From positions 1-61,504 of the forward strand of contig DASQUP010000144.1 in the NCBI GenBank assembly GCA_035641235.1: a stretch of DNA of 61,504 nucleotides, written 5' to 3'. The notes under the pieces were generated by a model that was not told the DNA's origin, did not search any database, and worked only from the letters and a program-made list of their open reading frames with translations. Position 1 is the stretch's first letter. The number at the start of each line of letters is the position of its first letter. Shown in pieces: positions 20,448 to 51,327 of this stretch. The stretch comes from Actinomycetota bacterium. Lineage in GTDB: Bacteria; Actinomycetota; CADDZG01; WHSQ01. A program made the position numbers and the translations under genes.

Positions 20448-21002
20448 ATGCACGACGGCACCCCAGCACCCCCTTCCTCTCACTCGAGGATGCTCCGGCG
20501 CGCCTGGATTCTGGTCCCGGCGGCTGCTTTTGTCGGCCTTCTTACGTTCGGTTTGCTGCGTGCGGGGGAGGCGCCGGGAATCGGCGACACGGCGCCCGAG
20601 TTCACGGCGGAGCGCCTAAACGACGGCGGCTCTCTCTCGCTGAACGAGCTCCGCGGGCGCCCCGTGCTCCTGAACTTCTGGGCCTCCTGGTGTGTCCCCT
20701 GCGAGGACGAGGGACCGATGCTGCGCGCCGGCTTCGAGCGCTACGGCAATCAAGTTCACTTCGTCGGCGTCGATATACGTGACGCTCGAGGAGATGCTCA
20801 GGAGTTCGTTCGCCGCCACAAGCTCGACTATGAGCATGTTCGTGATGAAAGGCTTCAGATCTACGACGACTACGGATTAACCGGACAGCCCGAGACCTTT
20901 CTCATCGATTCGGACGGCAGGATCGTCCAGCACATCTCCGGGCCACTGCTGAGCGAGGACGATCTGTTCGTGTTGCTCGAGGAGCTCGTAACCCGTGGTT
21001 GA
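20448..21002 (+). CDS. TlpA/ResA-family thiol:disulfide oxidoreductase
   Basis: N-terminal TM anchor and thioredoxin motif FWASWCVPCEDE. Confidence 0.88.
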   Translation: MHDGTPAPPSSHSRMLRRAWILVPAAAFVGLLTFGLLRAGEAPGIGDTAPEFTAERLNDGGSLSLNELRGRPVLLNFWASWCVPCEDEGPMLRAGFERYGNQVHFVGVDIRDARGDAQEFVRRHKLDYEHVRDERLQIYDDYGLTGQPETFLIDSDGRIVQHISGPLLSEDDLFVLLEELVTRG

Positions 21003-21732
21003 TCCGACCGCCCCTCTCGCATTCGTCGCCGGGCTGGTTTCCTTTCTGTCGCCGTGCGTGTTGCCGCTAGTGCCGGGTTACCTCTCGTACATGTCGGGGA
21101 TCGGCAACTCCGAGCAGGGTAGGCGGCGCACCGTTCATACCGGCGCGGTCGCCCTCACTTTTGTCCTCGGCTTCACGCTCGTTTTTGTAGCTCTGGGAGC
21201 AACGGCGACCTACCTCGGAACCTTCTTGCGCGACAACCAGCAGGAGTTCGCCCGCGTTGGCGGTGTACTCATCATCTTGATGGGGCTGGTTTTCATGGGC
21301 GCACTCAAGGTTCCCTGGTTGTACCGGGAAGCGCGCTTTCATCCCTCACCCGGCGCCGGCGTGTCGGGCAGCCTTCTGCTCGGGGTCGCCTTTGCCTTTG
21401 GGTGGTCCCCATGTATCGGCGCAACGATGGGAGCCGTGCTCACCATGGCGGCCGGTCGGGGGAGCACCGGCGGCCCCGCGGAGGGCGCCTTCCTCCTGGC
21501 GGTTTATTCGTTCGGGTTGGGGCTCCCCTTCATACTGTCGGGGCTCGGGGTCTCGAAACTGACCGGCGCGGTCAAATGGCTCCGCAACCACACCAGGACG
21601 CTGAACCTCGTGAGCGGCGCTCTTCTGGTGGCGGTTGGCCTGCTGTTTGTCACGGGAGACCTATTCCGACTGTCTATATGGATGCAGAGGACGCTCACGG
21701 CCTTGGGCCTGGATTTCTGGAGTGACATCTGA
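20995..21732 (+). CDS. ccdA: cytochrome c biogenesis thiol-reductant transporter CcdA
   Basis: FLSPCVLPLVPGYLSYM and SPCIG motifs. 6 TM. Confidence 0.9.
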   Translation: MVDPTAPLAFVAGLVSFLSPCVLPLVPGYLSYMSGIGNSEQGRRRTVHTGAVALTFVLGFTLVFVALGATATYLGTFLRDNQQEFARVGGVLIILMGLVFMGALKVPWLYREARFHPSPGAGVSGSLLLGVAFAFGWSPCIGATMGAVLTMAAGRGSTGGPAEGAFLLAVYSFGLGLPFILSGLGVSKLTGAVKWLRNHTRTLNLVSGALLVAVGLLFVTGDLFRLSIWMQRTLTALGLDFWSDI

Positions 21733-21852: not shown

Positions 21853-21874
21853 GCTCAGATAGGATGGTCCACGT

Positions 21875-22579: not shown

Positions 22580-22592
22580 ATCGTTGACTCCC

Positions 22593-23858: not shown

Positions 23859-23873
23859 CGCGGTTCGGATACC

Positions 23874-25591: not shown

Positions 25592-25595
25592 GCGC

Positions 25596-28797: not shown

Positions 28798-29805
28798 CTA
28801 CAGGCTTCGCTCGTACTCGACGACGGCTCGTATCTGACTGTCGGTTAGCGGATACGGGGGCACAGGTATCCCCTGGGCCGGCGCTTCGGAAAAGGTAGGC
28901 ATGAACGCGAACCGACGTCCGTTGATGACGGTCAAGAGATGCTGGCTGCGCGGCAGGTGTCCCACTTTGCCCTGCCACAGCGCCATACCCTGGCGGTAGG
29001 GCTCTTCATCCTTCCCCTGACCCTCGGGACCGTGACACACGGCGCAGCGCGCTTCGAAGATCTCCTGACCGCACTGAAGTGTGTTCTCTCCGCCTATAGG
29101 ATCTGGATCCTGGCACTCCTCCGAGACCTCGGGGGCTTCAGAGTTCTCGGGCAGCGTCCGTAGCCAGTTCATAACGTCGTCGACCATCTGGTCGGTCATC
29201 GAGCCGCCGAACGCCACGCCCCACGCCGGCATGGGCGTCCCGGGGCGGCCGCGCTGAATGGTGAATCTGATGACCTCTTCGTCCCAGCGAGTGAACACGT
29301 TGTTTAGCGGGGGTGCGGCGTACTTCACGGCCTGTTCCGTGACGGGATCGAGGAAGTCGGGAGTCGCGTTCCCGCCGACCCCGTCCGCGCCATGGCAGTT
29401 GATGCACGCCTGCCCGAGAGCTATCTCCCGTTCGCGCTCCCGGAACAGAGCCGGGTCGGCGTCCTCTTCGAGTTGGGGTGGCACCGAATAGATCAGCTCA
29501 CCGCGCTCGACGGACTCCTCGTCGAAACGTTCCGCAAACGCTTCCTGGCGGTCGGCCTCCGGGAGCCAGTAGGCAGGTATGAACAGCGCCAGGGCAACGG
29601 TTGCGATTACGCCCCCAACTTGAACGCGCTGGAGTCTTCTCCCCTCCAGCTTCTCGTCGGTCTCGCCGGGCCGCAGCGCCCGCGGGATGCCGAGTTGCGC
29701 CGCCGGGCTCTTGGGTCTTGTTGTCGACCGAAGAAAGACCCCCCACAGAATGGCCGCACCGAGAATGAGAACGAGCGCGATGACGATGACATCGTTGGAC
29801 TGCAA
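28798..29805 (-). CDS. membrane-anchored dihaem cytochrome c (QcrC-like)
   Basis: Two CxxCH motifs (CINCH, CAVCH). N-terminal TM helices. Confidence 0.88.
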   Translation of the reverse strand: MQSNDVIVIALVLILGAAILWGVFLRSTTRPKSPAAQLGIPRALRPGETDEKLEGRRLQRVQVGGVIATVALALFIPAYWLPEADRQEAFAERFDEESVERGELIYSVPPQLEEDADPALFREREREIALGQACINCHGADGVGGNATPDFLDPVTEQAVKYAAPPLNNVFTRWDEEVIRFTIQRGRPGTPMPAWGVAFGGSMTDQMVDDVMNWLRTLPENSEAPEVSEECQDPDPIGGENTLQCGQEIFEARCAVCHGPEGQGKDEEPYRQGMALWQGKVGHLPRSQHLLTVINGRRFAFMPTFSEAPAQGIPVPPYPLTDSQIRAVVEYERSL

Positions 29806-29823
29806 CTCAGCCTCGCATTTCCA

Positions 29824-30642: not shown

Positions 30643-30654
30643 TTCATTACCCCT

Positions 30655-31509
30655 TTACAACTCGAAGAAGATTCCGTCGTTCCACGGGAACGTGAAGTTG
30701 AACCCTGGTCCCCGGAAGAACATCCCGATGATGGTCAGCACAGCAAAAGTCAGCATGTAGAACGAGAAGATTACGATCGCCACCTTGCGGTCGTCCGGGC
30801 GAGTGGAGGGATTCCGGTCGATGTATGGCCACGCAAACATCGCAATGATGATCACCGTGGGGATCGTCACTCCTGCAACCTGCGGGTGCAGGTAACGCAA
30901 GAGCTCCTGAAGGCCGAGGAAGTACCACGGAGCCTTTGATGGGTTGGGAGTCTGGTTGAAGTTCGCGAGTTCGCGCAGTGGCGCATCGACGGCCGTGGAG
31001 AAGAAGGTCAACAATGCCATCACCACAAGCAGAGACACGAACTCGGCTGCCATTAGGTGTGGCCACACGTTGATGCGGTCCATCGGCTGGCGTTCAACCT
31101 TCTGGATGGCTTCAGGTTTGACGACAGCCAGAAGTCGCTGAACGCGTTCGGGAACGGCGGAGGCTCCGTTGCCGGCGGCCCGGCGGGCCGGCGCGCCGCT
31201 CCTGGGGGCTGCTGCGGGCTTGGATGCCGCCGGCTTGGCGGCGGCCGGAGCCTTGGCGGCAGGCGCTGCTGCCGGTGCCGCGGCGGCGGGCTGTTCGGCC
31301 GGTGTCTCAGCCGCCTCGGCGGGAGTCGCAGCCGCGGGTTCGGCTGCCGGCCTGCTCGCGGTCGACGGGTCGGGCACGTTTGGGGTCTTGGAGCCGCGTT
31401 CGGCCCGCACCCGTGCCGCCTTCGCTCGAGCCTGGGCGACGGCTGGGGAGGAGCCCTTGTCGGTCTCCTCCTTGAGTACCTGTTCGTAGACCTCGTCTGG
31501 AGTCGGCAT
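30655..31509 (-). CDS. cytochrome b C-terminal part (b6f subunit IV-like) with N-terminal conserved module and Ala/Pro-rich linker
   Basis: C-terminal 3-TM region with NPSKAPWYFLGLQELLR (position of the PEWY Qo motif). The N-terminal ~130 aa are a charged module plus an A/P/K-rich low-complexity tract. Confidence 0.8.
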   Translation of the reverse strand: MPTPDEVYEQVLKEETDKGSSPAVAQARAKAARVRAERGSKTPNVPDPSTASRPAAEPAAATPAEAAETPAEQPAAAAPAAAPAAKAPAAAKPAASKPAAAPRSGAPARRAAGNGASAVPERVQRLLAVVKPEAIQKVERQPMDRINVWPHLMAAEFVSLLVVMALLTFFSTAVDAPLRELANFNQTPNPSKAPWYFLGLQELLRYLHPQVAGVTIPTVIIIAMFAWPYIDRNPSTRPDDRKVAIVIFSFYMLTFAVLTIIGMFFRGPGFNFTFPWNDGIFFEL

Positions 31510-31531
31510 AGTCGTAGTCCTCAGTCCGCCC

Positions 31532-32305
31532 CTATATGGGGCCCGAGATGCCTCCGTCCTTTCTCACTCGCCAGAAGTGAATCGAAATGAAGATCACGAT
31601 GAGGAACGGCAAGAACAACACGTGCAGTGTGTACCACCTGATCAGTGTTTCAGGGCCGATCACGGGTCCGCCCAAGAGAGCGAACTGGACCTGATCACCG
31701 ATCACAGGTGAGTTCTTCATCATCTCCGTCCCGACGGTGACCGCCCATACTGCGAGTTGGTCCCACGGCAGCAGGTAGCCCGTAAAGGCCAGCAGCAGCG
31801 TCAACAAGAGAAGGACGACGCCGACGATCCAGTTGAACTCGCGCGGTGGTTTGTAGGCGCCGGTGTAGAAGACCCGGGCCATGTGCAGGAATACCGTTAT
31901 CACCATGAGGTGGGCACCCCACCGATGCAGGTTGCGGACGAGAAGTCCGAACGACACCTGCGTATTAAGTCCCTGCATGTCCGAGTAAACGAGATCCACC
32001 GACGGCCGGTAGAAGAACATCAGGTAGATACCTGTGATCGTCAACAGAATGAACAGGAAGAAGGTAAGTCCACCGAGGCACAACGTGTAGGAAAGCTTGA
32101 CTCCGTGCCGCTTCACCTTCACCGGATGAAGGTGGTAAAGCACCGAGTTCATTACTACGTATGCGCGGTTCCGGGGAGAGTCCGCATACCCCCGCCGAAA
32201 GATAGAACCCGGCCGGAACATAGAGCGCCAGAGCTGGCTTCCGTGGAGCTGATCGAGGCGCTCGCCTACCTTTTCTCTCGGATTCCACCCGGACTCGTTG
32301 GCCAC
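31532..32305 (-). CDS. qcrB: cytochrome b6-type subunit (N-terminal 4-TM cytochrome b)
   Basis: Haem-ligand pairs H-x13-H (HRWGAHLMVITVFLH) and H-x14-H (HVLFLPFLIVIFISIH). YTLCLGG retains the b6/Firmicute haem-ci Cys. GTG at 32305 has GGAGGG 10 nt upstream (ORF track 31532..32407). Confidence 0.88.
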   Translation of the reverse strand: MANESGWNPREKVGERLDQLHGSQLWRSMFRPGSIFRRGYADSPRNRAYVVMNSVLYHLHPVKVKRHGVKLSYTLCLGGLTFFLFILLTITGIYLMFFYRPSVDLVYSDMQGLNTQVSFGLLVRNLHRWGAHLMVITVFLHMARVFYTGAYKPPREFNWIVGVVLLLLTLLLAFTGYLLPWDQLAVWAVTVGTEMMKNSPVIGDQVQFALLGGPVIGPETLIRWYTLHVLFLPFLIVIFISIHFWRVRKDGGISGPI

Positions 32306-32321
32306 TCCGGTCTTTCCCTCC

Positions 32322-32744
32322 CTAGGATGCCTTCTGGGACTCGGGCACAGTTCCCATAGCCCGGGCTCCGCGCTTCTTTTTTCCACCTGCCACCTGGCTC
32401 TGCACAAGAGCGCCTGTGGGGCACCGCTCCACGCAGAGGTTGCAGCGGGTGCATGCGTTGTCGTCGATCAGGAACAGGATGTCGCTGGGATCCATCATCC
32501 CGGCAAGAGCCACGTTGCCGGACTCCGCCACGGCTTCGGGATCCACCATGTGGATGCAGTACCACGGGCAGATGTCTACGCACCCCTCGCAAAGGATGCA
32601 CTGCTCGGGGATGAAATCGATGAAGTTCTTGGGTTTGACGGCGCCCTTGAGCCACTCGTCGTCGACGAGTTGCATCTCGTAGTCGATCCGGAAGATGGGC
32701 TTCTGGATCGTTTCCATTTTGCGCGGCTCTGGTGGTTTGGGCAT
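32322..32744 (-). CDS. 2x[4Fe-4S] ferredoxin-domain protein, soluble
   Basis: CILCEGCVDICP and CTRCNLCVERCP cluster motifs. No TM helix or signal peptide. The stop lies 16 nt before the cyt b6 start. Confidence 0.85.
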   Translation of the reverse strand: MPKPPEPRKMETIQKPIFRIDYEMQLVDDEWLKGAVKPKNFIDFIPEQCILCEGCVDICPWYCIHMVDPEAVAESGNVALAGMMDPSDILFLIDDNACTRCNLCVERCPTGALVQSQVAGGKKKRGARAMGTVPESQKAS

Positions 32745-32750
32745 GTTCCC

Positions 32751-33122
32751 CTATTTCCCGGACATGTAGCCCTTGACGGGGTCCTGGAGACCCCTGGCGC
32801 CGGTGCGCTTCTGCTTGCCCTTCTGCCAGAAGTAGGCCATTCCCAACATCACCACGAGAGCACCGATCTGCACCGTGTTGGCGATGATGTCGCGGACCAT
32901 TGCGATCTGCTTGGGGTTGAGGCCCTCGTCGTTCACGCCTGGGATCTTCGTGGTGAAGTCGATGATGCCCGAGACCTCCTGATCGAAGTAATAAATGATG
33001 TAGGAGGGAATCTGGCCGAGCAGGATGATTGCCAGTATCCAGATGATGCTTCCGAGAACAATGGCGCGAGTCCAGGTCATCGGTTTGTCGGTGTACTTGT
33101 ACACGCGCTCTCGCATCGACAT
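32751..33122 (-). CDS. 2-TM membrane protein, first gene of the Rieske/cyt b operon (function unknown)
   Basis: ORF 32751..33158, ATG at 33122/33116 preferred. Two hydrophobic helices. 6 nt from the ferredoxin start. Confidence 0.6.
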   Translation of the reverse strand: MSMRERVYKYTDKPMTWTRAIVLGSIIWILAIILLGQIPSYIIYYFDQEVSGIIDFTTKIPGVNDEGLNPKQIAMVRDIIANTVQIGALVVMLGMAYFWQKGKQKRTGARGLQDPVKGYMSGK

Positions 33123-33206
33123 TGCGCGCCATCTTACAGTCCTCGTAGGGCCAATCAACTTAAGCGGCCGATCAAGATTCCGCCGTGTGACCTGGGACTT
33201 TGCGCG

Positions 33207-33356
33207 TTAGTGACTGCTATCAGATCGGTTGCTCGAGGAGAGTCCCTCTCGCCGGCGCTCGAGCCGTCGCCGGCGCGCGCCGAGCCACACGAGGTAGGTC
33301 CCCAGCCCAATCGCGACGGCGGAGAAAGCCACGAACATCCAGGCAAGGTCGCTCAT
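33207..33356 (-). CDS. ccmD: CcmD-like haem exporter protein D (49 aa)
   Basis: Not in the ORF track. ATG at 33356, 4 nt after the ccmC stop. MSDLAWMFVAFSAVAIGLGTYLVWLGARRRRLERRRE is a single TM followed by an Arg cluster, as in CcmD. Confidence 0.6.
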   Translation of the reverse strand: MSDLAWMFVAFSAVAIGLGTYLVWLGARRRRLERRREGLSSSNRSDSSH

Positions 33357-33359
33357 CGA

Positions 33360-34070
33360 CTACGTAGCCGCGTGAGTGGGCTGCCGTCTCGCTCCCTGAA
33401 GCTCGAGCTGCCGGATCTCGTCCTCGTCTCGCCCGAGCTTGACTCGTTGGACGAGGAGCCAGGTGAAAAGCAAGGTGAACGCCGCCAGGGAGACGAAGAA
33501 GGCGAGCAGCTCCGGCGCGCCGAGTCCCGAGCTGGCGCTCGGATCCGATGGGGTCGGGCCCGAGGGGTGAAGGGTCCGCCACCACCGCACCGAGAAATGG
33601 ACGATGGGGACATTGATGAAGCCGACGATCCCCACGACCGACGCCATCCGGCCTGCTCTGGTCGGGTCGGTTGCGAGGTTGCGGAGGAATAGGTAACCGA
33701 CGTAGGTGAGCCACATCACCGTGGTCGATGTCAGGCGGGCATCCCACTGCCACCAAGTGCCCCACACCGGGCGCGCCCAGATCGGGCCGGTGATCAGGAC
33801 CAGGGCGCCGAAGAGGACGCCGAGCTCCGCGGCCGAGTGCCCGAGCAGGTCCCACCGGCGCTCGCCGGTGCGCAGGTACACGATCGAGGCGATAAAGGTG
33901 ATGGCGAAGCCGAGGTAGGCGACCCACGCCGACGGGACGTGGAAATAGAAGATGCGCTGGAGCGGACCGCCCATCGAGTCGTCCGCCTCCCTGGCGACGA
34001 AGAAGATGAGGAACAAGGAAACGCCCACGAGCGCCCACGCCGCCACGCCGAGCCGTTTTGTCTTGTCCAT
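33360..34070 (-). CDS. ccmC: haem exporter/haem-handling protein CcmC
   Basis: WWD motif WGTWWQWDARLT. 6 TM. Confidence 0.92.
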   Translation of the reverse strand: MDKTKRLGVAAWALVGVSLFLIFFVAREADDSMGGPLQRIFYFHVPSAWVAYLGFAITFIASIVYLRTGERRWDLLGHSAAELGVLFGALVLITGPIWARPVWGTWWQWDARLTSTTVMWLTYVGYLFLRNLATDPTRAGRMASVVGIVGFINVPIVHFSVRWWRTLHPSGPTPSDPSASSGLGAPELLAFFVSLAAFTLLFTWLLVQRVKLGRDEDEIRQLELQGARRQPTHAAT

Positions 34071-34143
34071 AAGGCAGAGCCTACCGGCGCGCCGCCCCCT
34101 AGATGTCTCCTTAAATGGGCGGGGGCCCAGGGGCCTGAGGGAA

Positions 34144-34186
34144 CTTTGGTCGAAAACCTACTCGTAGCGCAGGTTTTATGCCAAAG
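34144..34186. repeat. nested double hairpin straddling the stop of DUF559 gene 1
   Basis: CTTTGG tcg AAAACCT actcgtagcgc AGGTTTT atg CCAAAG. Shares the 10-mer CGAAAACCTA with the left edge of the type B copy at 54615. Confidence 0.45.
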
Positions 34187-35141
34187 AACGTCCCAGGGCA
34201 TTTGCAATCTCTCTAGCCAGTCCGCTCGGGTCATTTTTCATCCGAGCGTAGGTGACGTGCAACACTCTTTTTCCGCTTGCGGTGAGACGGTTGCGGCGTT
34301 GCAGATCGCGCTCCCAGTCCTTGGGATTGAGGTGATGGCGTCGACTGTCGACCTCGATCACAAGATCTTCATCTGGATAAATGAAGTCCACGCGTGCGAC
34401 GAACCCAGCTTCATCACGCACGACCCGCTGGCGTACTGGCAGAGGAAGGCGCTTGCGGCGGAGCAACTGGAGGAATTTTGTTTCCAGGGCGCTCTCAGTT
34501 GGGGGCGTTAGGGGATCTCTGCCTTCGAGGACGAGTCGCAGAACGCCCGATCCTCGATGGCCGCGTCCGGATGCTTCCTCGAGACGTCTCATGAGCCGAT
34601 CGAGGTTTGTCATTCGCCGGCGCAACGCACACTCCAGCGCAAGCTCCACGACATCGGCCTCCACGACCGCGCCGAGGTCGATCAACGTTCGATGCACAGT
34701 CGACATCGGGATTCCGGCTACCTCTGCAATGTCCCTGCGCGGCACCCCGGTCATCCGATGAACAATGACGTCCGGGCGTGTCGTCCGGAAGTTGCACGAC
34801 GTACTTGCCTCGATCGTCCCCTCTGGAACTTCGTCGAGTTGCCAGAACCCTGCCGCGCCTCGATGCGATGCCCATATTTGACCCGGCTTCCACAACGTCA
34901 CCGCTTTCAGCTGTTGCTTGAAGGAACTCGGCGTTGCCGAATAGCGGTAGACCGTCGGATGCTCACGTACGATCAGGCCGCTCCTCAGGCGCCGCCCGAT
35001 CCCGTGATCCTCGATGCCGACCTCGCGTGCCTGCTTCGAGGTGAAGAGCCCATACTGATTGGCCGCTATCCGCGCTAGAGCAGCGTCGCCTCGGTCGTTG
35101 GTGTGAATCCTGCCCATAAGGGACGTTGTCGCGCCGTCCAA
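34176..35141 (-). CDS. AbiEi-like wHTH plus DUF559 (Vsr-like endonuclease fold) protein, paralog 1
   Basis: N-terminal GLFTSKQAREVGI...GLIVREHPTVYRY. C-terminal DFIYPDEDLVIEVDSRRHH...RRNRLTASGKRVLHVTY. TTG at 35141 or ATG at 35117. Sits between ccmB and ccmC. Confidence 0.8.
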   Translation of the reverse strand: MDGATTSLMGRIHTNDRGDAALARIAANQYGLFTSKQAREVGIEDHGIGRRLRSGLIVREHPTVYRYSATPSSFKQQLKAVTLWKPGQIWASHRGAAGFWQLDEVPEGTIEASTSCNFRTTRPDVIVHRMTGVPRRDIAEVAGIPMSTVHRTLIDLGAVVEADVVELALECALRRRMTNLDRLMRRLEEASGRGHRGSGVLRLVLEGRDPLTPPTESALETKFLQLLRRKRLPLPVRQRVVRDEAGFVARVDFIYPDEDLVIEVDSRRHHLNPKDWERDLQRRNRLTASGKRVLHVTYARMKNDPSGLAREIANALGRSLA

Positions 35142-35196
35142 GCCAGTGTGCTGTGAAATAGATCACAGCGAAGCGTTGCGGCGGCGGCGCGCCGGG

Positions 35197-35946
35197 TTAG
35201 TCGATTGCGAACTCGAAAGCCAGCGCGCCCGTCGTTGTCATGATTACGTCGAACGCCAGCAGGATTCCGAACCAACCCTGCTCCGTCACTGCTCCGAACC
35301 CCCCGCCCAAAAACAAGTCCGAAGACAACTCCAACCCCCCGATGAACGCAGGCACCAGGGCAGGCAGCGCCAGGATCGGCAGGATCAGCTCCCGGCTGCG
35401 AGTTCCGGCGGCGAGCGCCGAGAACAAAGTCCCGATCGCCACGAAGCCGACGTTCACGAGCAACACCACCACGGCCATCGGACCCAGTGACGACACGAGG
35501 TCGACCCCGAAGAGCAAGGCGAAGGCAGGCAGGAGAACCGCCTCAACGAGCAGGATCGAGATGAAGTTCGCCGCCGCCTTTGCAAAAAATAAACCCGTCC
35601 GATCCAGCGGAAGGAGCAGAAGAACGTCGAGCGCGCCCTCCTGCTGGTCCACCTCGAACGTTCGTGCGAACCCGATCAGCCCCGCGAACAGCACGGTCAC
35701 CCAGAAGAATCCGGCGAGCACATCGGCCAGCGGTGCTACCCCCACACCCACCACAGAGGTTGGAGCTTCGAGTCGGCCGGACGTCGGGAGTGTGAACGCT
35801 AGCAACAGAGTCACCGCGAACGAAAACGCCAGCATCGGGGGAAGGGTGTCGCGCGTCCGCAATTCGATGCGTATGTCCTTGCGGGCCAATACTGCCGTCT
35901 TTGCCACCCACCCCCGCTCTGCGCGCGGCGCAGCAATGGAGCTCAC
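35197..35946 (-). CDS. ccmB: haem exporter permease CcmB
   Basis: GTG at 35946 overlaps the ccmA TGA. CcmB-like FEVDQQEGALDVLLLLPLDR segment. 6 TM. Confidence 0.88.
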   Translation of the reverse strand: MSSIAAPRAERGWVAKTAVLARKDIRIELRTRDTLPPMLAFSFAVTLLLAFTLPTSGRLEAPTSVVGVGVAPLADVLAGFFWVTVLFAGLIGFARTFEVDQQEGALDVLLLLPLDRTGLFFAKAAANFISILLVEAVLLPAFALLFGVDLVSSLGPMAVVVLLVNVGFVAIGTLFSALAAGTRSRELILPILALPALVPAFIGGLELSSDLFLGGGFGAVTEQGWFGILLAFDVIMTTTGALAFEFAID

Positions 35947-36611
35947 GACCGCCTCACGGTGGACCGCTTCCGGGGGCCGTATCTGCCCGCCACAACCACT
36001 CGCCCATCGCGCAGGATGATCCCGCCGTCGGCATAGGCCTTCACTTTCTTGGCGCCGTGCGTTGCGATCAGCGCCACCTTCCCGGGCGCGCACCATTCCT
36101 TCACGGCGGTCGAGAGCATTTCCGATGCATCGTCATCGAGGTTTGCGTAGGGCTCGTCAAGAAGAAGCACATCCGGGTCGTGGACGATCGCCCGCGCTAC
36201 CGATGCTCGCCTCTTGAGTCCCGCAGACAGATCGCCCGCATAAGTCGATGCCCGTCCCGACAGGCCCACTGCCGCGAGCGCATCGTCGACGCGCGCCGCC
36301 GGCGCGCCGTACAACCCTGCAAACAGCTCCAGGTTCTCGGCGACGGTTAGGCGTGAATAGAGCCCTGCCGCGTGGCCCGAGTACCCGATCCGCCGCCGAA
36401 AGGATTCATCTCTCAGCGACGGCGGCTGCCCCTCGACCGCAACCGACCCCGACGTCGGTCGCTGCAGCCCGGCAATAACGCGCAGCAGCGTCGACTTACC
36501 GGAGCCGTTCGGCCCGAAGAGCCCTGTGATACCGGCTGCTACATCGAGATCGACCCCGTCGAGAGCAATAGTGCGTCCGAACGCAACCGTGAGGGAGGCC
36601 GCGGAGATCAT
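35943..36611 (-). CDS. ccmA: haem exporter ATPase CcmA
   Basis: Walker A GPNGSGKST, signature LSAGLKRR, Walker B LLLDEP. ATG at 36611 preferred. Confidence 0.9.
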   Translation of the reverse strand: MISAASLTVAFGRTIALDGVDLDVAAGITGLFGPNGSGKSTLLRVIAGLQRPTSGSVAVEGQPPSLRDESFRRRIGYSGHAAGLYSRLTVAENLELFAGLYGAPAARVDDALAAVGLSGRASTYAGDLSAGLKRRASVARAIVHDPDVLLLDEPYANLDDDASEMLSTAVKEWCAPGKVALIATHGAKKVKAYADGGIILRDGRVVVAGRYGPRKRSTVRRS

Positions 36612-36657
36612 GCCCGAACTCGGACGCGCCCGAACGCCGCCTCGCACGCGCCGCGCC

Positions 36658-37836
36658 TCACAGCGTCGGCTCCGGCTGAGCTAGGTTCGCCAGCCTCTCC
36701 TTGAGTTCGGCACGCCGCTTCGACCACTCCTGTTCAGAGATATCTCCTGCTCGATAGCGAAGGTCGAGCGCTGCGATGAGCGACAAGAGATGGTCGCGCG
36801 TCTCGGCAACGGGATGTCCGCCGTATGCGGTCAATCCCTCGACGGGGCGGGGGCCGCGTCGCCGCATGAAAGCGAAACCGACCAACCCAACTGCGAGCAC
36901 CGCAGCGATTCCGATTCCGATGTTCAGTCCGCCGCCTTCGGCCTCCGCGGTGGCCTGAACCTGCAGCCGGTCGCCCCCTTCGATGGTGTCCGTTGTCGCC
37001 CACCGTTCGTAGGTTCGGTCTCCGATCCTCACACGTTCGTCGGGAACGAGCCGGTTGCTGCGAATCGTGAGCGGCGGCTCCGCGTGCACGAGCATGTTGA
37101 GAGTCGGGTACAGCGCTGCACGATTGATGTCGAAGATACCGGCGCTCCCAGGGATCGTGTAGGTGTAGGTGAAGGTGCTCTCTCCAGGGGGAACGGCTGC
37201 GGTAATGGCTAAGCCGAAGTCGCTCTCGGTCGCCCCCGGCACATCGATGCTCGAGTCGACAAGCGGGAAGTCCGGTAGTTCGGCTCCGTCGGGTACTGAG
37301 AACCCGAGCGTGGGACGCGGTCCCTCGTCTCCTCCTCCGCCCCGTCCGATGTAGGCGCGGTTCGAGTTGTTTATGACGATGACCGACTCGATTACATCAA
37401 CGCCTCGATCCGACAATGACAGGAACATGGCATCCCGCTCTACGACGATTACGTCGGGATCGTCGGTCGGTGGCCACACTCGCAACGTGGTGTCCACAAC
37501 GGGAGGCTCGGCCGTGTCCGATGGAAGTCGAACGGCACCTCCGTAGTACCCCTGCCGGAAGTTGGCGGTGAGCGTATAGAGGTACTCGTCCCCCGTCGGA
37601 AGTTTGTCGAACTCAAAGCGTCCGCGCCGGTCGGTGGTAGTGCGTTTGACTTTGGGCTCGCTGCCTTGCTCGCTCGCTTGGGTCAACACGACCCGAACCC
37701 CACGCACACCTCTATCGGAGTCGCCGCGCAAAACCTCGCCGGTGATCGTTCCTTTCTCCGCGGCCTCGACCGGCCCGGCGATCAGCGGCAGCGCTGCCAC
37801 AGCCGCCAGGGCAAACTTCAGGATTCGTGACCGCAT
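36658..37836 (-). CDS. secreted/anchored protein with carboxypeptidase-regulatory-like Ig domain and CcmI-like cytoplasmic tail
   Basis: Signal peptide MRSRILKFALAAVAALPLIAGPVEA. GxVxxxxxxxxVxGVRVVL...TDRRGRFEF beta-sandwich. C-terminal TM, then ALDLRYRAGDISEQEWSKRRAELKERL. Confidence 0.65.
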   Translation of the reverse strand: MRSRILKFALAAVAALPLIAGPVEAAEKGTITGEVLRGDSDRGVRGVRVVLTQASEQGSEPKVKRTTTDRRGRFEFDKLPTGDEYLYTLTANFRQGYYGGAVRLPSDTAEPPVVDTTLRVWPPTDDPDVIVVERDAMFLSLSDRGVDVIESVIVINNSNRAYIGRGGGGDEGPRPTLGFSVPDGAELPDFPLVDSSIDVPGATESDFGLAITAAVPPGESTFTYTYTIPGSAGIFDINRAALYPTLNMLVHAEPPLTIRSNRLVPDERVRIGDRTYERWATTDTIEGGDRLQVQATAEAEGGGLNIGIGIAAVLAVGLVGFAFMRRRGPRPVEGLTAYGGHPVAETRDHLLSLIAALDLRYRAGDISEQEWSKRRAELKERLANLAQPEPTL

Positions 37837-38216
37837 TTGCTGCATGCCTCTCCCGGAACTCTTGGCCCCCCGCACTCGGGACACTCCATTCGAGCTCGAA
37901 TCGCAGCTATCTCCGCTTCGAACTCGTCATCATCGGCCTCACCCCGTTCGATTGCGTCGAGTTCCTTGAGAGCGGCGAGAGCTTCGGCTTCGTACTCGTC
38001 GCGCAGGATCTCGAAGTCGGCCGTCGACAGCTTGCCGATAAGCCGTTCGTTCTCAATGTCCACAAGGGCGCCAAGCGCAGCCTCTTTGCGCGCTCCGGCT
38101 TCCTCCAGCCGGATTGAAACAGAATTAGCCTCCGGCCGCGCCCCGCGCACAAGGGGGATTGAGATGTAGATCCCTGCGACGGTGATGAAAAGGAGGATCA
38201 GTACGATTTCCATCAC
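37818..38216 (-). CDS. CcmI-like N-terminal module protein with C-terminal zinc ribbon
   Basis: N-terminal TM. ALVDIENERLIGKLSTADFEILRDEYEAEA resembles the CcmI/CycH N-terminal motif. C-terminal CPECGG...CSKCG. Confidence 0.55.
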   Translation of the reverse strand: MMEIVLILLFITVAGIYISIPLVRGARPEANSVSIRLEEAGARKEAALGALVDIENERLIGKLSTADFEILRDEYEAEALAALKELDAIERGEADDDEFEAEIAAIRARMECPECGGPRVPGEACSKCGHES

Positions 38217-38671
38217 GGTTCATCCCTGAACGCCGCCAGCTCCGCTTGAACCCGAGCACGGTCCGAGTCGGCGATGCGCGGTCGATCTGCTCCGGCTGCG
38301 GGTTCTCTCTCAGAGGGTGTCCATCGCCTGGCCAGCCAGACGACCAGGGCCAAACCCGCCATCGCGAACAGCGCCGGCGTGACCCATGCGACCCCCTCTT
38401 TAGGTGTTGCTCGGATGCCCGGCCCGTATTCGGCCTCCAAACGATTCAGGATCTGGGCGTCCGTCATCCCCTCGCGTGCCATGCCGGCGATCTCTGCACG
38501 GAGCTCGTCGGACTCCTTCGAGGGGCAGTCGTGAAGTGTGACGCCGTCGCAGAAGGGCGACATGATTCGTTGCGACAGGCGCGCTGCCCTTTCCTCCGGA
38601 GTCTGTGCTGCCGCCACGTGCGTCAGAAACAAACTTCCCGCGAGTGTCAGCGCGAGCAGCCCTGCTTTCAT
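38213..38671 (-). CDS. ccmH: CcmH/NrfF-like protein with non-canonical redox motif
   Basis: ATG at 38671 overlaps the ccmF TGA (ATGA). Signal peptide. RIMSPFCDGVTLHDCPSKESDELRAEI aligns with LRCPKCQNNSIADSNS of canonical CcmH. EYG and a C-terminal TM follow. Confidence 0.75.
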   Translation of the reverse strand: MKAGLLALTLAGSLFLTHVAAAQTPEERAARLSQRIMSPFCDGVTLHDCPSKESDELRAEIAGMAREGMTDAQILNRLEAEYGPGIRATPKEGVAWVTPALFAMAGLALVVWLARRWTPSEREPAAGADRPRIADSDRARVQAELAAFRDEP

Positions 38672-40665
38672 CGTGTGACCACCGCGGGCTCGGAGGCGGG
38701 GCGGCGCGCCCCAGGACTTCTCTGAGGTACCGGCGCTCCACCGCTCATGATGACGACCATGCCCAAGAGCATCACCGCGGCGCCGGCCCAGATCCACCAC
38801 GTGAGCGGATTCACGAAGGCCCGGAGCCCGGCCGCCCCGTCTCTGTCGAGTGACGTCACAACTACATAGAGGTCTTCGACGGGCGTCGTCCTGATGGCAA
38901 CTTCGCTCTGTCGCTGGCCCTGAGCGAAATGGAAGTTCAGCTGCGGTCGCAGCGTGGTGATCTGGCGGTCACCTCTGAAGACGTCGACCTGGGCGGCGTT
39001 GACTTCCTTCTCGGGCGTCGAGCCACGATCCAGTCCCTCGTAGACAAGTGTGTACTCGCCGATCTTCATCGAGTCGCCCACCGGAACAAGCGCCTGGCTC
39101 TCGGTGCGAAATGCTGCGCCCGCAAGGCCCAAAACGATCAACAACACACCAAGGTGGACGACGTAGCCGCCGTACCGGCGGCGATTACGCATGAGGGTTC
39201 GTCCGAGCGCCTCCCGCCAGCCGGCGCCGCGCGTCCTGTACACGCGGCTCCCGCGCACGAACTCACCCGCGATCGCCGTGGCCGTAAATGCACACAGACC
39301 GAACGCCAGCAGTGCGCCCGCGCTGCGCGTGCCCATCGCCGCGACGACGAGCGTGACCCCCGCTCCGGCCAGCAGCGGGATCTGCACCACCCTCAAGAAG
39401 GCTCCTCTGCTCATCCGGCGCCACGAGATCAGGGGTCCGATGCCGGTCAGCGCCACTATTGCGAGTGCGACGGGGATGAAGACCGAATTGAAGAAGGGTG
39501 GTCCCACCGACAGCCGAACTCCAGAGAACGCTTCCGCAACTATCGGGTACATGGTTCCCCACAGGACGGTGAAGGCCGCAGCGAGGAACAGCACATTGTT
39601 CAGTAGGAAAGCGGACTCGCGCGACAACAAAGAGTCGAACCGGTTCTCGCTCCTAAGCCGCTCCCCGCGAGCCACTACAACTACCAACCCGCCGATCAAC
39701 ATGAAGCCAAGGAACGGCAGAAACCATTTCCCCGTTGTGCTCTCCGTGAAGGTGTGGATGCTCGAGAGGATTCCGGAGCGAGTGAGGAACGTGCCGAAGA
39801 GGGCAAGCACGTACGTGAGCAGGATCAAGACTACGTTCCAGACCTTGAACATCCGGCGCTTCTCTTGGATGACCACAGAATGCAGGAATGCAGTCGCCGT
39901 GAGCCATGGCATGAACGAGGCGTTCTCCACCGGATCCCAAGCCCAGTAGCCGCCCCAACCGAGTTCCGTGTAGGCCCAGGCCCCTCCGAGGACGATGCCG
40001 ATAGACAACGAACTCCACGCGAAAAGCGTCCATCGCCGTGTGGACGTGAACCACGAGTCATCCAACCGCCCTGAGAACAGAGCGGCCATCGCGAACGCGA
40101 ACGGCACCGAGAAACCCACGAATCCGGCGTACAACAGCGGTGGGTGTATGAGCATGCCCGGAGACTGAAGCAGCGGGTTCAGCCCCTGGCCGTCCGTGGG
40201 AACGTCGGCCACTTTCGTGAAGGGATCGGCGGGCCCCACAAGCAGCGCGAGGAAAAAGACGGCCACTCCCGCCAAGACGGCGCCCGCCCACGCAACGAGG
40301 CGGTCGGTGCGGGCGCGCGCCCGGATCAGGGCAACTGCAGCAAAGGCGGTTAGGAGGAAGGTCCAGAACAAAAGGGACCCCTCCATGCCGCCCCACAACG
40401 CTGCGAATGTGTACCGGAAACTGAGCGAGCGGGAGGAGTAGTTGACGGCGTACTGGAGGGAGAAGTCGTGAACGAGGAGTGCATGTAACAGCGCCACCAT
40501 CCCGATGGTGACCAGAACGCCTGTGGCAACCATCGCCCTGACGCCGGCCTTGGTGAGCTCGCTGCGCCGCCGCAAGGCGCCGAGCGTGCACAACGCCCCG
40601 GCCGCCAGCGCCACGATCGCTGCAGCGACCAATGACGGGCGTCCCAGGGCAGCAAGCGAATTCAC
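38668..40665 (-). CDS. ccmF: cytochrome c haem lyase subunit CcmF
   Basis: 665 aa polytopic protein. WWD motif WGGYWAWDPVENAS. Confidence 0.93.
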   Translation of the reverse strand: MNSLAALGRPSLVAAAIVALAAGALCTLGALRRRSELTKAGVRAMVATGVLVTIGMVALLHALLVHDFSLQYAVNYSSRSLSFRYTFAALWGGMEGSLLFWTFLLTAFAAVALIRARARTDRLVAWAGAVLAGVAVFFLALLVGPADPFTKVADVPTDGQGLNPLLQSPGMLIHPPLLYAGFVGFSVPFAFAMAALFSGRLDDSWFTSTRRWTLFAWSSLSIGIVLGGAWAYTELGWGGYWAWDPVENASFMPWLTATAFLHSVVIQEKRRMFKVWNVVLILLTYVLALFGTFLTRSGILSSIHTFTESTTGKWFLPFLGFMLIGGLVVVVARGERLRSENRFDSLLSRESAFLLNNVLFLAAAFTVLWGTMYPIVAEAFSGVRLSVGPPFFNSVFIPVALAIVALTGIGPLISWRRMSRGAFLRVVQIPLLAGAGVTLVVAAMGTRSAGALLAFGLCAFTATAIAGEFVRGSRVYRTRGAGWREALGRTLMRNRRRYGGYVVHLGVLLIVLGLAGAAFRTESQALVPVGDSMKIGEYTLVYEGLDRGSTPEKEVNAAQVDVFRGDRQITTLRPQLNFHFAQGQRQSEVAIRTTPVEDLYVVVTSLDRDGAAGLRAFVNPLTWWIWAGAAVMLLGMVVIMSGGAPVPQRSPGARRPASEPAVVTR

Positions 40666-40690
40666 GTGCCGCTCCCGGACTTGCCGCCGA

Positions 40691-40739
40691 CTTCTGTCTG
40701 CTCAGAACCGCGGTATCCGCGGTTTTCAGCAGACAGAAG
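40691..40739. repeat. nested double hairpin (type A, copy 3) in the ccmE-ccmF intercistronic gap
   Basis: Outer stem CTTCTGTCTGCT/AGCAGACAGAAG (12 bp). Inner stem AACCGCGG/CCGCGGTT (8 bp) with loop TAT. Confidence 0.5.
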
Positions 40740-40774
40740 CGCGAGTCCGGCGGGTGTGGGCCGGCGCGCCGAGC

Positions 40775-41221
40775 TCAAGCCTTGGCTTTGAACTTGGAGG
40801 GACACTTTGCGAGTACCTCTGAAGCGGAGAAGATCTCGCCGTCGAAGGACCCCCGAGCCACGACCTCGGTATCTGCGTCGTCACGGAAGGCGTCCGGAAG
40901 CGGCCGGTCTGTTAGCACCGTGACATCGGTGTCTCCGTCCGTGATTGCGAAGGTCGTCTCGAGGCCCCGGCGGTCCACCGTGCCCTCAACGACGTTGCCG
41001 TTTATCCGGACTTCCTCGGCTCCCGTCGTGGGCCCCCGGTCAGAGACCTCGCTGGTTGTGAGGTAAAAGGCGGTGGAACCGGGCCGGGTGGTAGCCCACA
41101 ACACAAGGCCGATCACCGTCACGACGATGATCGCTCCGCCGGCATAGAACTTTACGTTTGTTTTGCTGTTGCCCGCCCCGGGTTTGTCCGGCCACGGGGT
41201 GTCCTCTAGCTGCTGGTCCAT
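40775..41221 (-). CDS. ccmE: haem chaperone CcmE, Cys variant
   Basis: N-terminal anchor plus OB fold. The C-terminus reads EVLAKCPSKFKAKA where canonical CcmE has VLAKHDENY. Confidence 0.88.
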   Translation of the reverse strand: MDQQLEDTPWPDKPGAGNSKTNVKFYAGGAIIVVTVIGLVLWATTRPGSTAFYLTTSEVSDRGPTTGAEEVRINGNVVEGTVDRRGLETTFAITDGDTDVTVLTDRPLPDAFRDDADTEVVARGSFDGEIFSASEVLAKCPSKFKAKA

Positions 41222-41261
41222 GTCTGACCAGCGTAAATGAAACTTCGAGGTAGGCCGCGCC

Positions 41262-41840
41262 CTATTCGAGGACGTACAAGGTCACGAACAAAAAGATCCA
41301 GACGACGTCCACGAAATGCCAGTAGTACGAGACGGCTTCCGCCGTTCCATGTCTGGCAGCCGAGATTCGGCCCCCTCGAGCCGAGGCGTACACCACTCCG
41401 ATTGCCACTAGACCTCCGGCGACATGGAGTCCATGGAAGCCGGTCATCGTGAAAAACAGAGTGGCGAACTGGTTCGTGGAGATGACGAAGTCCTCGCCGA
41501 CGAGTTCTGAGTACTCCCAAGCCTGTCCACCGAGGAAGACCAACCCGAGAGTGATGGTGATCACCAGCCATCTCATCGTCCCGGCGACGTCGTCAGTTCG
41601 TAGGACGGTCACCGCCCGCTGGATTGTGAACGACGAGGCTATGAGAAAGAGAGAGAAGAAGCCGGTGCGCAGTACGGCTATCTCGGCCGTCCCCGGCGGA
41701 GGCCATGGGTCGGTGGCTGCCCGAATCGTGAAGTAGGCGCCGAACAAGCTGCCGAAGAACATCAGTTCTGAGGCGATGAACAGCATCATGCCGAGGAGGG
41801 CGCCCGGAATGCGGCGTTCTCGAACTCCCTGGACGGCCAT
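41262..41840 (-). CDS. haem-copper oxidase subunit III paralog
   Basis: FFGSLFGAYF, TGFHGLHVAGG and YYWHFVDVVW motifs. 192 aa. Confidence 0.88.
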   Translation of the reverse strand: MAVQGVRERRIPGALLGMMLFIASELMFFGSLFGAYFTIRAATDPWPPPGTAEIAVLRTGFFSLFLIASSFTIQRAVTVLRTDDVAGTMRWLVITITLGLVFLGGQAWEYSELVGEDFVISTNQFATLFFTMTGFHGLHVAGGLVAIGVVYASARGGRISAARHGTAEAVSYYWHFVDVVWIFLFVTLYVLE

Positions 41841-42409
41841 TACCCCGATCCCGCCTCGTTCAGCAGACCCTCGATCCTCGCCAGCAGTTCCTCCTCCGAG
41901 ATCTCACCGAGCACCGGATCACCGCTGAGACGACCGTTCGCGTCCATAAAGAAGGTCTGTGGCAGCGGGTCTACGTTGAGCTGCCCGGCCAGCTCCGCTT
42001 CGGGGTCTCTCAAGATGTCGTAGGTGATCTCGTATTCCTCTACGAATTCCTTCGCAGTGACCTCCGCGTCCTTGACATCGATCCCGACGATCGTCAGCTC
42101 GTCGGAGAAGCGCCGATGCATTCGCTCGAACAGCGGCATCTCCCTGCGGCACGGGATACACCACGAAGCCCAGAAATTCAGGATCGCGGGGCGACCGCTG
42201 AGATCGCTACGTGCGACCGTTCCGGGGGCGTCCAGACGAGGCAACTCGAACTCCACGAGACGGCCCGGTGCCGTCGCACTGTCTGGAGCAGGGCGCACGA
42301 GCCCGAATACGACGACGCCGATCAAGAAGGCTGCTGCAACCAACGCGGGAATCAGCCGGCGGGACTTTGAGCGTTTGTGAGCGCCTTCCACCTCGTCCCA
42401 AGGCACCAT
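41840..42409 (-). CDS. TlpA/CcmG/ResA-like thiol:disulfide oxidoreductase
   Basis: ATG at 42409 (MVPWDEV...) with TM anchor. FWASWCIPCRRE. The ORF track start at 42568 is unlikely. Confidence 0.85.
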   Translation of the reverse strand: MVPWDEVEGAHKRSKSRRLIPALVAAAFLIGVVVFGLVRPAPDSATAPGRLVEFELPRLDAPGTVARSDLSGRPAILNFWASWCIPCRREMPLFERMHRRFSDELTIVGIDVKDAEVTAKEFVEEYEITYDILRDPEAELAGQLNVDPLPQTFFMDANGRLSGDPVLGEISEEELLARIEGLLNEAGSG

Positions 42410-42483: not shown

Positions 42484-43533
42484 ATGGGAACTCCCGGAAA
42501 AGGCAGGTCTCGCATTCTGTTCGGCCTCGTACTGGCGACGTTTGCCTTGCTGGTCGCCGCGTGCGCACCCGACGCGCCGCAAGACGTGTTGAAGCCCGAA
42601 GGGCTCGGCGCCCGCGAGGCCGATCGCCTGTGGGACATCGTCTTCCCCATCGCCGCCGTGATCTTCTTTGTCGTCGAAGGAGTTCTTATCTATGCCGTCG
42701 TGAAGTACCGGCATAAGCCGGGGCGCGAGGCGAAGCAGTTCCACGGCAACACAAAGATCGAAGTCGCGCTTACCGCCATACCAGCTCTGATTCTGGCCGG
42801 CATCGCGGTTCCCACGGTGCGGACGATCTTCGACCTGGCGGAGGAACGGCCGGGATCGATGCAGGTGACGGTCATCGCCCATCAGTTCTGGTGGGAGTAC
42901 AGGTATCCGGAGCTCGGCATCACCACTGCCAATGAATTGCACATTCCCGTCGGGCAGCCCGTACGAGTGAGGCTCGAGGGCCAGGTGCGAGACCCCGTTG
43001 ATGGGACAGAGGAAGTCATCCACAGCTTCTGGGTGCCGCGCCTGATGGGAGCTCAGGATGTGGTTCCAGGGCGCGCCGAGTTTCAACTTCTTCAGGCCGA
43101 CCGTCCGGGTGAGTACTTAGGAGAGTGCAAGGAGTACTGCGGCCTCTCCCACGCCAACATGCGGCTGCGGGTCATCGCGCAACCTCAGGAAGAGTTCGAC
43201 GCGTGGGTCGAGGACATGCAAACGACCGAGGAACACGACGGTGGTCTCGACGGGGCCGATCTTTTCGTGAACGGAGCCGACAACATAGGCCAGCCGTGTT
43301 CGGCGTGCCACTCGGTTGAAGCCTCCCAGGAACAGCCGAGCCTCGGACCCAACCTGGGCGGGTTTTCCGAACGCGGCATGTTCGCGGGAGCCATCTTCGA
43401 GAACAATGAGGAGAATCTCCGCGCGTGGCTCCGGAACCCGCCCGGCGTGAAGCCCGGCGCCAAGATGCCGAACCTCAACCTCACATCGGACCAGATAGAC
43501 GCGCTGATCGAATACCTGCAATCGTTGGAATGA
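42484..43533 (+). CDS. ctaC: cytochrome c oxidase subunit II with fused cytochrome c domain (caa3-type)
   Basis: ATG at 42484. Lipobox LLVAAC. CuA site HSFWVP...CKEYCGLSHANM. C-terminal CSACH haem c motif. Confidence 0.92.
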   Translation: MGTPGKGRSRILFGLVLATFALLVAACAPDAPQDVLKPEGLGAREADRLWDIVFPIAAVIFFVVEGVLIYAVVKYRHKPGREAKQFHGNTKIEVALTAIPALILAGIAVPTVRTIFDLAEERPGSMQVTVIAHQFWWEYRYPELGITTANELHIPVGQPVRVRLEGQVRDPVDGTEEVIHSFWVPRLMGAQDVVPGRAEFQLLQADRPGEYLGECKEYCGLSHANMRLRVIAQPQEEFDAWVEDMQTTEEHDGGLDGADLFVNGADNIGQPCSACHSVEASQEQPSLGPNLGGFSERGMFAGAIFENNEENLRAWLRNPPGVKPGAKMPNLNLTSDQIDALIEYLQSLE

Positions 43534-43564: not shown

Positions 43565-45435
<1,871 letters not shown>

Positions 45436-45439
<4 letters not shown>

Positions 45440-51326: not shown

Positions 51327-51327
51327 C

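Follow-up and report, generated by a model that had tools for sequence, protein, structure and literature searches.

The 61,504-nucleotide stretch of DNA analysed here (the window; contig DASQUP010000144.1, from an Actinomycetota bacterium) carries a row of cytochrome c maturation (Ccm) genes at positions 33207-42409. The operon belongs to System I*, the variant of System I in which the haem-binding His of the haem chaperone CcmE is a Cys, and joins to it an apparently undescribed form of CcmH and a conserved set of accessory genes, in a phylum usually tied to System II. We conclude that it is very probably a functional Cys-type System I* maturation set of an uncultured actinomycetotal lineage, because its genes are assigned by Pfam and NCBIfam models, the haem ligands of CcmC and CcmF and the WCIPC motif of the CcmG-like protein are intact, and the set is conserved and syntenic among relatives.

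All genes of the row lie on the minus strand in the order ccmG–cox3-like–ccmE–ccmF–ccmH–X–Y–ccmA–ccmB–(DUF559 gene)–ccmC–ccmD (Table 1). They are tightly packed, and starts and stops overlap at several junctions: ccmF and ccmH share an ATGA overlap, with the ccmH ATG at 38671, and X starts on the ccmH stop. Every gene is a long open frame with strong bias towards G and C at third codon positions (GC3), which is high throughout, and the GC content of the window is uniform at 0.62-0.64. This flat composition, together with synteny with the cox and bc operons that is shared across the relatives, rules out a recent horizontally acquired island. The original prediction, made from the letters of the DNA, had listed CcmG-like, CcmE, CcmF, CcmH-like, CcmA, CcmB, CcmC and CcmD-like products, all of which are backed by Pfam or NCBIfam; it had left out the COX3-family gene and the DUF559/AbiEi_4 gene.

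The haem-handling core retains the residues expected of it. CcmF aligns to Thermus thermophilus CcmF (6zmq) at 7e-110 and keeps the WWD segment and all four His (two periplasmic and two transmembrane), within the motifs IHPPLLY, WGGYWAWDPVENASF, FLHS, SIHTF and VVHLGV. CcmC, aligned to E. coli CcmC (7f02), keeps FHVP, WGTWWQWDARLTS and WWRTLHP; its WWD segment reads WGTWWQWD and both His are intact. With an ABC ATPase, CcmB, this CcmC and a small CcmD, the haem-release module CcmABCD is complete. The top NCBIfam matches of the CcmG-like protein are ResA and DsbE, under their cut-offs.

CcmE ends in AKCPSKFKAKA (gca aag tgt ccc tcc aag ttc aaa gcc aag gct tga). Cys140 (codon 40804-40802) aligns with His130 of VLAKHDE in E. 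coli CcmE (PDB 8ce8/1sr3), and therefore Phe144 (codon 40792-40790) falls at the position of Tyr134. The protein has Cys and Phe instead of the canonical H-x-x-x-Y haem-binding motif, and its AKCPSKF segment conforms to the Cys-type CPSK[Y/F] pattern of System I*; the nearest families in a search of representative proteins are CPSKY or CPSKF. Across an alignment of 37 sequences, C140, P141, S142, K143 and F144 do not vary.

To place this motif, we scanned 1.84 billion cluster representatives (50% identity) in full with HMMER and classified the best 150 matches. Among these best 150, CxxxY accounts for 114 and CxxxF for 27, followed by HxxxY (2) and single cases of CxxxM, CxxxL and CxxxW; four are truncated or unscorable. 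The CxxxF forms fall into at least two groups, one of which includes a protein from a Dehalococcoidia metagenome-assembled genome (MAG), in a crude neighbour-joining tree of about 120 columns and low resolution that serves solely to place the F forms in more than one group. Single representatives carry CPSRL and CPTKW (P0259 and P0291), and the CcmE of a sister lineage, L032, ends in VKCPSKMEAE, with Met at the Tyr/Phe position. A third class of gene order pairs a CASKY-type ccmE directly with ccmA, with no ccmF or ccmH nearby (L058, L061, L070, L074 and L077-L084).

System I* was reportedly first defined, by Allen et al. 2006, through the absence of CcmH (and of CcmG). Both are present in the window. 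In a 2011 review the absence of CcmH was no longer a defining feature (Stevens et al. 2011, PMC3601427): about one System I* bacterium in three has CcmH, and most variant CcmEs are CPSKY, with four examples in which the Y is replaced by F. The Cys of the CXXXY CcmEs of Desulfovibrio and Methanosarcina binds haem covalently and is required (PMC9084895, PMC3601427), and the Tyr of E. coli CcmE is dispensable (PMC3601427). The Cys/Phe reading in the original prediction stands at nucleotide level and in the structural alignment; its suggestion that such a CcmE is new does not, and nor does its view that a retained CcmH is odd beside it. Because Y-to-F forms are on record and CxxxF is common among the best 150 matches, this CcmE belongs to the known System I* class and is less unusual than first thought.

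CcmH is the more divergent component. Its motif, IMSPFCDGVTLHDCPS, is encoded by atc atg tcg ccc ttc tgc gac ggc gtc aca ctt cac gac tgc ccc tcg and, with numbering, reads MS38PFC41DGVTLHDC49PS (Ser38, codon 38560-38558; Cys41, 38551-38549; Cys49, 38527-38525; numbered 39, 42 and 50 in alignments A1 and A3, which carry one extra leading residue). When the protein is aligned by profile to its P. aeruginosa and E. coli counterparts (2hl7 and 2kw0), Ser38 corresponds to the first Cys of LRCPKC, Cys41 to the second, and Cys49 to the Ser of the conserved ADSNA. The canonical LRCxxC redox motif is lacking, with the second Cys alone kept and the first replaced by Ser; recoding of this position as selenocysteine is ruled out by the codon, tcg. 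We find that SxxC with an extra Cys eight residues downstream (the +8 Cys), as originally read, is borne out by the codons, the alignment and conservation among relatives.

The protein otherwise has the make-up of the CcmH/NrfF family, a three-helix bundle with a transmembrane anchor. A signal peptide is followed by a periplasmic three-helix domain, a transmembrane helix and a cytoplasmic tail. The AlphaFold model (mean predicted local distance difference test (pLDDT) score 77) has helix 1 at residues 25-34, a loop at 35-51, helix 2 at 52-66, helix 3 at 71-82 and the transmembrane helix at 97-117, then a C-terminal helix; Ser38, Cys41 and Cys49 are all placed in the loop that joins helix 1 to helix 2. 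Its top fold match is P. aeruginosa CcmH (2hl7), with a TM-score of 0.66 on the target.

We compared the operon with 80 loci from metagenomes, two from acidobacterial genomes and three retrieved by exact protein matching, on contigs of 2.48 Mb (contig_6085 of ERZ25039476), 1.0 Mb (Ga0671538_00000002) and 1.3 kb, the last with the CcmE of the window itself. Ccm genes in these loci were located by phmmer, and those whose CcmE scores 116 bits or more, 30 in all, are taken as the clade of the window. The two acidobacterial loci, which are Acidobacteriota matches at 40-42% identity from a scan of genome contigs with CcmE alone, serve as the CPSKY outgroup. CPSKF is present in all 30 clade loci, the S-type CcmH in all 18 that reach ccmH (one, L029, reads SPFCPGSTLHDCSS), and X and Y in all 16 that reach further. 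The two large contigs (2.48 Mb and 1.0 Mb), with a CcmE identity of 59-60%, have the same gene order. The pattern S-P-[FY]-C-x-G-x-T-L-H-D-C is found in 21 of 23 CcmH homologues and, in a wider set, in 28 of 30, and each of the S, C and C columns reaches at least 90% conservation across 30 sequences.

This conservation bears on whether the Cys-to-Ser change in CcmH and the Tyr-to-Phe change in CcmE mark decay or sequencing error. Both strike residues deemed functional in the E. coli system, and a selfish-looking DUF559 gene interrupts the operon. However, neither motif is an error, because relatives carry identical ones: a CPSKF end is found in 120 of 120 CcmE homologues among the matches listed (52-99% identity) and the S-type motif in 18 of 18 CcmH loci, from many independent metagenomes and at identities as low as about 50%. 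All remaining catalytic residues are in place, frames are long with strong GC3 bias, and Cys49 has been gained and conserved rather than lost. Sequencing error, which the original prediction had named for the CcmE codons among the things that would overturn it, and pseudogene status are thus ruled out for these motifs, and decay or artefact as a general account of the two changes is extremely unlikely.

The compared loci show three classes of CcmH motif. Other CPSKF lineages (for example the loci L040, L042, L045, L048, L051, L056, L060 and L065) pair their CcmE with a canonical LQCPVCxGxxVADSPS protein. Because CPSKF occurs there with CxxC, the CcmE Y-to-F change and the CcmH changes are independent. 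Cys-rich forms come in two versions: C[YDE]CGCxNLx[IV]xxC[TS]CG, with a CPSKY CcmE, in Acidobacteriota-like loci (L001, L002, L041, L052, L055, L057 and L068), and CQCGCGLTLASCTHxVC, with a CPSKF CcmE, in L036 and L043. The Acidobacteriota-like proteins (for example L001:12327-12911 and L002:12366-12920) have five cysteines, not a CxxC pair, and L075 has a further form, CQCGTCPKRPIATCGC. The S-type motif SP[FY]CxGxTLHDC is confined, among the compared loci, to the clade of the window, with CPSKF, and to its CPSKM sister L032, where CcmH has EE for HD (MSPFCPGLTLEECPS; the pair of genes is at L032:1606-2364 and L032:4324-5001).

Because the +8 Cys, sited before helix 2, is common to the S-type and Cys-rich proteins, the S-type CcmH belongs to a wider non-canonical group and is no one-off. 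A G-[LV]-T-[LV]-x-x-C segment is shared by the S-type proteins, L036/L043 and P0150 (CQCGCGLTVHSC), a metagenome CcmH homologue without locus context that also has the His (GLTVHSC). The SxxC...C variant appears to be undescribed: we found no account of it in the literature searched, which included single-Cys CcmH and CPSKF/CXXXF, and nothing specific on ccm genes in Acidimicrobiia, Rubrobacter, Thermoleophilia or Nitriliruptoria. C-P-S-K occurs both at the haem-binding Cys of CcmE (AKCPSKF, 40790-40804) and at the new Cys of CcmH (HDCPSKE, 38516-38527); C-P-S alone is conserved in the CcmH family, and the sharing is probably coincidence.

Gene content, motifs, conservation and synteny are observed, and the chemistry that we propose is taken throughout from characterised homologues. 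CcmABCD would load haem onto CcmE, which, by analogy with the CXXXY CcmEs of Desulfovibrio and Methanosarcina, would hold it covalently through Cys140. CcmE would lack a Tyr axial ligand, because Phe144 cannot ligate iron. CcmF, with its WWD segment and four His, would take the haem and attach it to apocytochromes, namely the CXXCH proteins encoded nearby, while CcdA and two thioredoxin-like proteins would supply reductant. CcmH most likely still handles the apocytochrome thiols. Cys41 may act alone, its mixed disulfide being resolved by the CcmG-like thioredoxin; alternatively, CcmH may use a relocated, putative Cys41/Cys49 pair. X and Y would stand in for the missing tetratricopeptide repeat (TPR) protein CcmI.

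For the CcmH step there is a competing account, in which CcmH is a purely structural partner of CcmF, Cys41 and Cys49 are not redox-active, and reduction falls to the thioredoxin-like proteins and CcdA. It gains some plausibility from Desulfovibrio System I*, which functions in E. coli even when CcmH and CcmG are absent (PMC3601427). Against it, both CcmH cysteines are at least 90% conserved and the Cys-rich CcmH forms of other phyla retain the +8 Cys as well; this conservation argues for selection on the thiols themselves. We regard a purely structural CcmH as unlikely and favour a CcmH that acts on apocytochrome thiols.

Between ccmH and ccmA lie two genes, X and Y, which the original prediction called CcmI-motif proteins and which are real and conserved. 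X has an N-terminal transmembrane helix, a SHOCT/CcmI-N-like helical motif (ALVDIENERLIGKLSTADFEILRDEYE; consensus aLxalvDlExErxxGKLsxxDfxxLRxEYE) and a C-terminal CxxC...CxxC zinc ribbon, the cysteines of which are conserved in all 16 clade copies. It directly follows ccmH in each of these 16 loci, and X, often with Y too, follows ccmH in several other lineages (L036, L037, L042, L043, L045, L048, L051, L071 and L075). Y, kept between X and ccmA, consists of a signal peptide, three β-sandwich modules (the first CarboxypepD_reg-like), a transmembrane helix and a cytoplasmic SHOCT-like tail, with a mean pLDDT of 88.4 in its AlphaFold model. Its 62 homologues are mostly labelled 'hypothetical', and similar C-terminal tails of two of them (P0362 and P0363) give weak Pfam matches to SHOCT/GvpG-like helices. 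Distant homologues of 600-650 amino acids (P0362 and P0365-P0370) combine two cytochrome c domains with a Y-like β-sandwich, transmembrane segment and helical tail, which ties the Y-like fold to c-type cytochromes in another way.

No protein of the cluster has a TPR match, and X and Y match no CcmI model in Pfam or NCBIfam. From their position and conservation, X and Y probably fill the CcmI role in scaffolding and apocytochrome handling.

The operon also holds a COX3 paralogue distinct from the COX3 of the cox operon. Eight clade loci (L010, L011, L012, L014, L017, L021, L027 and L031) also have a COX3 homologue between ccmG and ccmE. In L016 and L022, neither of which yielded a ccmG, the homologue immediately precedes ccmE. 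Both COX3 copies are present in L012 and L027.

These components might together form a rewired holocytochrome c synthase. In such an arrangement the thiols of CcmH would have shifted to Cys41/Cys49 (CX7C), or to a single Cys resolved by CcmG; X and Y would replace CcmI; the COX3-like protein would join the complex; and the +8 Cys would mark a widespread, unrecognised CcmH subfamily found beside Cys-type CcmE in several phyla. We put this forward tentatively, as a possibility that we rate below an even chance.

The DUF559/AbiEi_4 gene is a mobile-looking insertion and lies outside the Ccm machinery. A paralogue is located 20 kb away, and copies of the DUF559 type adjoin ccmE elsewhere, in L016, L019, L020 and L050. 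The slot between ccmB and ccmC is variable, being empty in L003 and filled by a Peptidase_M15 (Peptidase_M15_4) gene in L005.

The operon sits between a caa3 oxidase operon upstream, divergent from ccmG, and a bc-type complex downstream. CoxII, with a C-terminal cytochrome c domain, and the dihaem cytochrome c of the bc-type complex are likely substrates. The make-up of the bc-type complex is unusual for Actinomycetota: its genes encode a 135-amino-acid membrane protein, a 2x[4Fe-4S] ferredoxin, a cytochrome b split into N and C parts, a Rieske protein, the dihaem cytochrome c and a 233-amino-acid protein without a Pfam match. The ferredoxin–cytochrome b arrangement is also seen in L003 and L005. 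Haem synthesis, reductant supply, Ccm, bc complex, oxidase and probable ctaA/ctaB genes all fall within 35 kb.

The host and the neighbourhood raise the question of System II. All named relatives of CcmE and of Y come from Actinomycetota or Actinobacteria MAGs, in agreement with the actinobacterial context originally proposed. The absence of resB and ccsA after ccdA in the window, also noted then, is confirmed by the layout of open reading frames (ORFs), in which ccdA is followed by rex and then hem genes (hemACDBL), and by a six-frame scan of the 61.5-kb window that found CcmC and CcmF as its two WWD proteins and no third. Within the window, the System II hallmark of ResB and CcsA/ResC beside ccdA is therefore missing.

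The operon could nevertheless be a specialised, NrfEFG-like lyase set for particular cytochromes, such as the CoxII domain, with a System II elsewhere in the genome doing the bulk of the work. The best NCBIfam matches of CcmF and CcmH are indeed NrfE/NrfF-type subfamily models, although below their cut-offs, and the genome is visible over 61.5 kb only. Nrf-type sets borrow CcmABCDE rather than carry it, whereas a full CcmABCDE haem-delivery set is present here. Neither nrfA nor a CXXCK protein is encoded nearby, and all three CXXCH motifs of the neighbouring proteins are standard. Model Actinomycetota use System II, as in the case of ResB/ResC in C. glutamicum (PMC9145763), but the actinobacterial ccdA-resB-resC linkage is broken in the window, and contigs of Mb scale show the operon in synteny with the respiratory complexes. 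We consider a specialised lyase set improbable, and retain the reading of the operon as a general System I* maturation set.

Several observations weigh against that reading. A System II or a second ccmE may lie in the part of the genome beyond the 61.5 kb of the window. All eight CcmE equivalog scores from NCBIfam fall far under their cut-offs (best, 59 against 126), and the best NCBIfam match of CcmH, to NrfF, is weak (27 bits against a cut-off of 159); because of these scores we class these two proteins as divergent, as judged by sequence models. None of the Y columns with at least 90% conservation across 49 sequences holds a Cys, His or Met, and its fold matches only generic β-sandwiches (OST1/ribophorin, Gram-positive pilins and M1 aminopeptidase N-domains) at TM-scores of at most 0.28. 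Because it has no invariant Cys or His and only generic fold matches, the role given to Y is a guess from position alone.

Table 1 Features of the ccm operon and its surroundings (coordinates in the window)
Feature	Coordinates	Strand	Basis and remarks
ccmG-like	41840..42409	-	PF00578 at 2.5e-22, PF08534; membrane-anchored thioredoxin fold, WCIPC; start faces coxII
COX3-family paralogue	41262..41840	-	PF00510 at 4.8e-31
ccmE haem chaperone	40775..41221	-	PF03100, 74.6 bits
ccmF haem lyase	38668..40665	-	PF16327, PF01578
ccmH variant, 152 amino acids	38213..38671	-	PF03918, 58.1 bits (cut-off 25)
Protein X, 132 amino acids	37818..38216	-	No Pfam or NCBIfam match
Protein Y, 392 amino acids	36658..37836	-	PF13620
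ccmA ABC ATPase	35943..36647	-	TIGR01189 equivalog, 157.6 bits (above cut-off 131.6)
ccmB ABC membrane subunit	35197..35950 (start approximate; ORF to 36096)	-	PF03379 at 4.1e-26; TIGR01190 weak
AbiEi_4/DUF559 gene	34176..35141	-	PF13338, PF04480; between ccmB and ccmC
ccmC	33360..34070	-	PF01578; TIGR01191 at 1.3e-46, 158.8 bits (below cut-off 186)
ccmD, alternative family, 49 amino acids	33207..33356	-	TIGR04391 CcmD_alt_fam, 32 bits (above cut-off 24)
coxII with C-terminal cytochrome c domain	42484..43533 (start approximate)	+	PF00116, PF02790, PF00034; one CXXCH
COX3 of the cox operon	45403-46047		
bc-type complex	28096-33158	-	
Dihaem cytochrome c	28798..29805	-	PF00034, PF13442; two CXXCH (residues 134 and 254)
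Thioredoxin-like gene and ccdA	20448..21732 (ccdA 20995-21732)	+	PF00578/PF08534, PF02683
Region with rex, hemA, hemC, hemD/cobA, hemB, hemL	20448-27841	+	Named by eye from ORF N termini
Probable ctaA/ctaB	50355-52263		By eye
DUF559/AbiEi_4 paralogue	~54673-55770	-	

Both the role of the CcmH thiols and the need for the CcmE Tyr are debated, and the clade offers natural experiments on the two points: its CcmE is never found with Tyr, and its CcmH, within an otherwise complete operon, lacks the first Cys of CxxC but has a new, fixed Cys eight residues away. The two proteins vary independently, as the CPSKF lineages that keep CxxC illustrate. The recurrence of X and Y between ccmH and ccmA, the expected place of a classical CcmI, suggests that they are unrecognised components of many non-proteobacterial Ccm systems. 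The operon also suggests that System II is not universal among Actinomycetota. As yet, it establishes no new principle.

Among known systems, the actinobacterial System II (ccdA-resA-resB-resC; Corynebacterium and Mycobacterium) comes from the same phylum and likewise has a thioredoxin-like gene and ccdA, here beside hem genes. It differs in that the window has no resB or resC and haem attachment is instead assigned to Ccm genes. Canonical System I (E. coli and Rhodobacter CcmABCDEFGH(I)) has the same protein families, the same CcmC and CcmF haem ligands and the same overall logic of haem export, chaperone, lyase and thioredox branch. In the window, by contrast, CcmE has Cys and Phe for His130 and Tyr134 and scores below every equivalog cut-off, CcmH has IMSxxC for LRCxxC, there is no TPR CcmI, and CcmD belongs to the alternative family TIGR04391.

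The other CPSKF lineages have both the CcmE motif and the order ccmE-ccmF-ccmH-X(-Y)-ccmA, but their CcmH is canonical; one representative is named as Dehalococcoidia. The Acidobacteriota-like loci and L036/L043 share the +8 Cys and a small transmembrane protein with the same helical motif after ccmH, whereas they have CxCGC...C(xC) in place of SxxC...C; the Acidobacteriota-like loci have no Y, and an X without the zinc ribbon. The characterised counterpart is System I* of Desulfovibrio desulfuricans, Desulfovibrio vulgaris and Methanosarcina acetivorans, which has the same replacement of the haem-binding His by Cys in C-P-S-K-aromatic and the same CcmABC(D), CcmE and CcmF, and in which the Y-to-F change and the partial retention of CcmH are already on record (PMC3601427, PMC9084895). 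The clade of the window differs in having Phe throughout, in possessing CcmH and a CcmG-like thioredoxin, which Desulfovibrio and the archaea lack, and in combining the SxxC CcmH and its +8 Cys with the additional proteins X, Y and COX3-like in an actinobacterial host.

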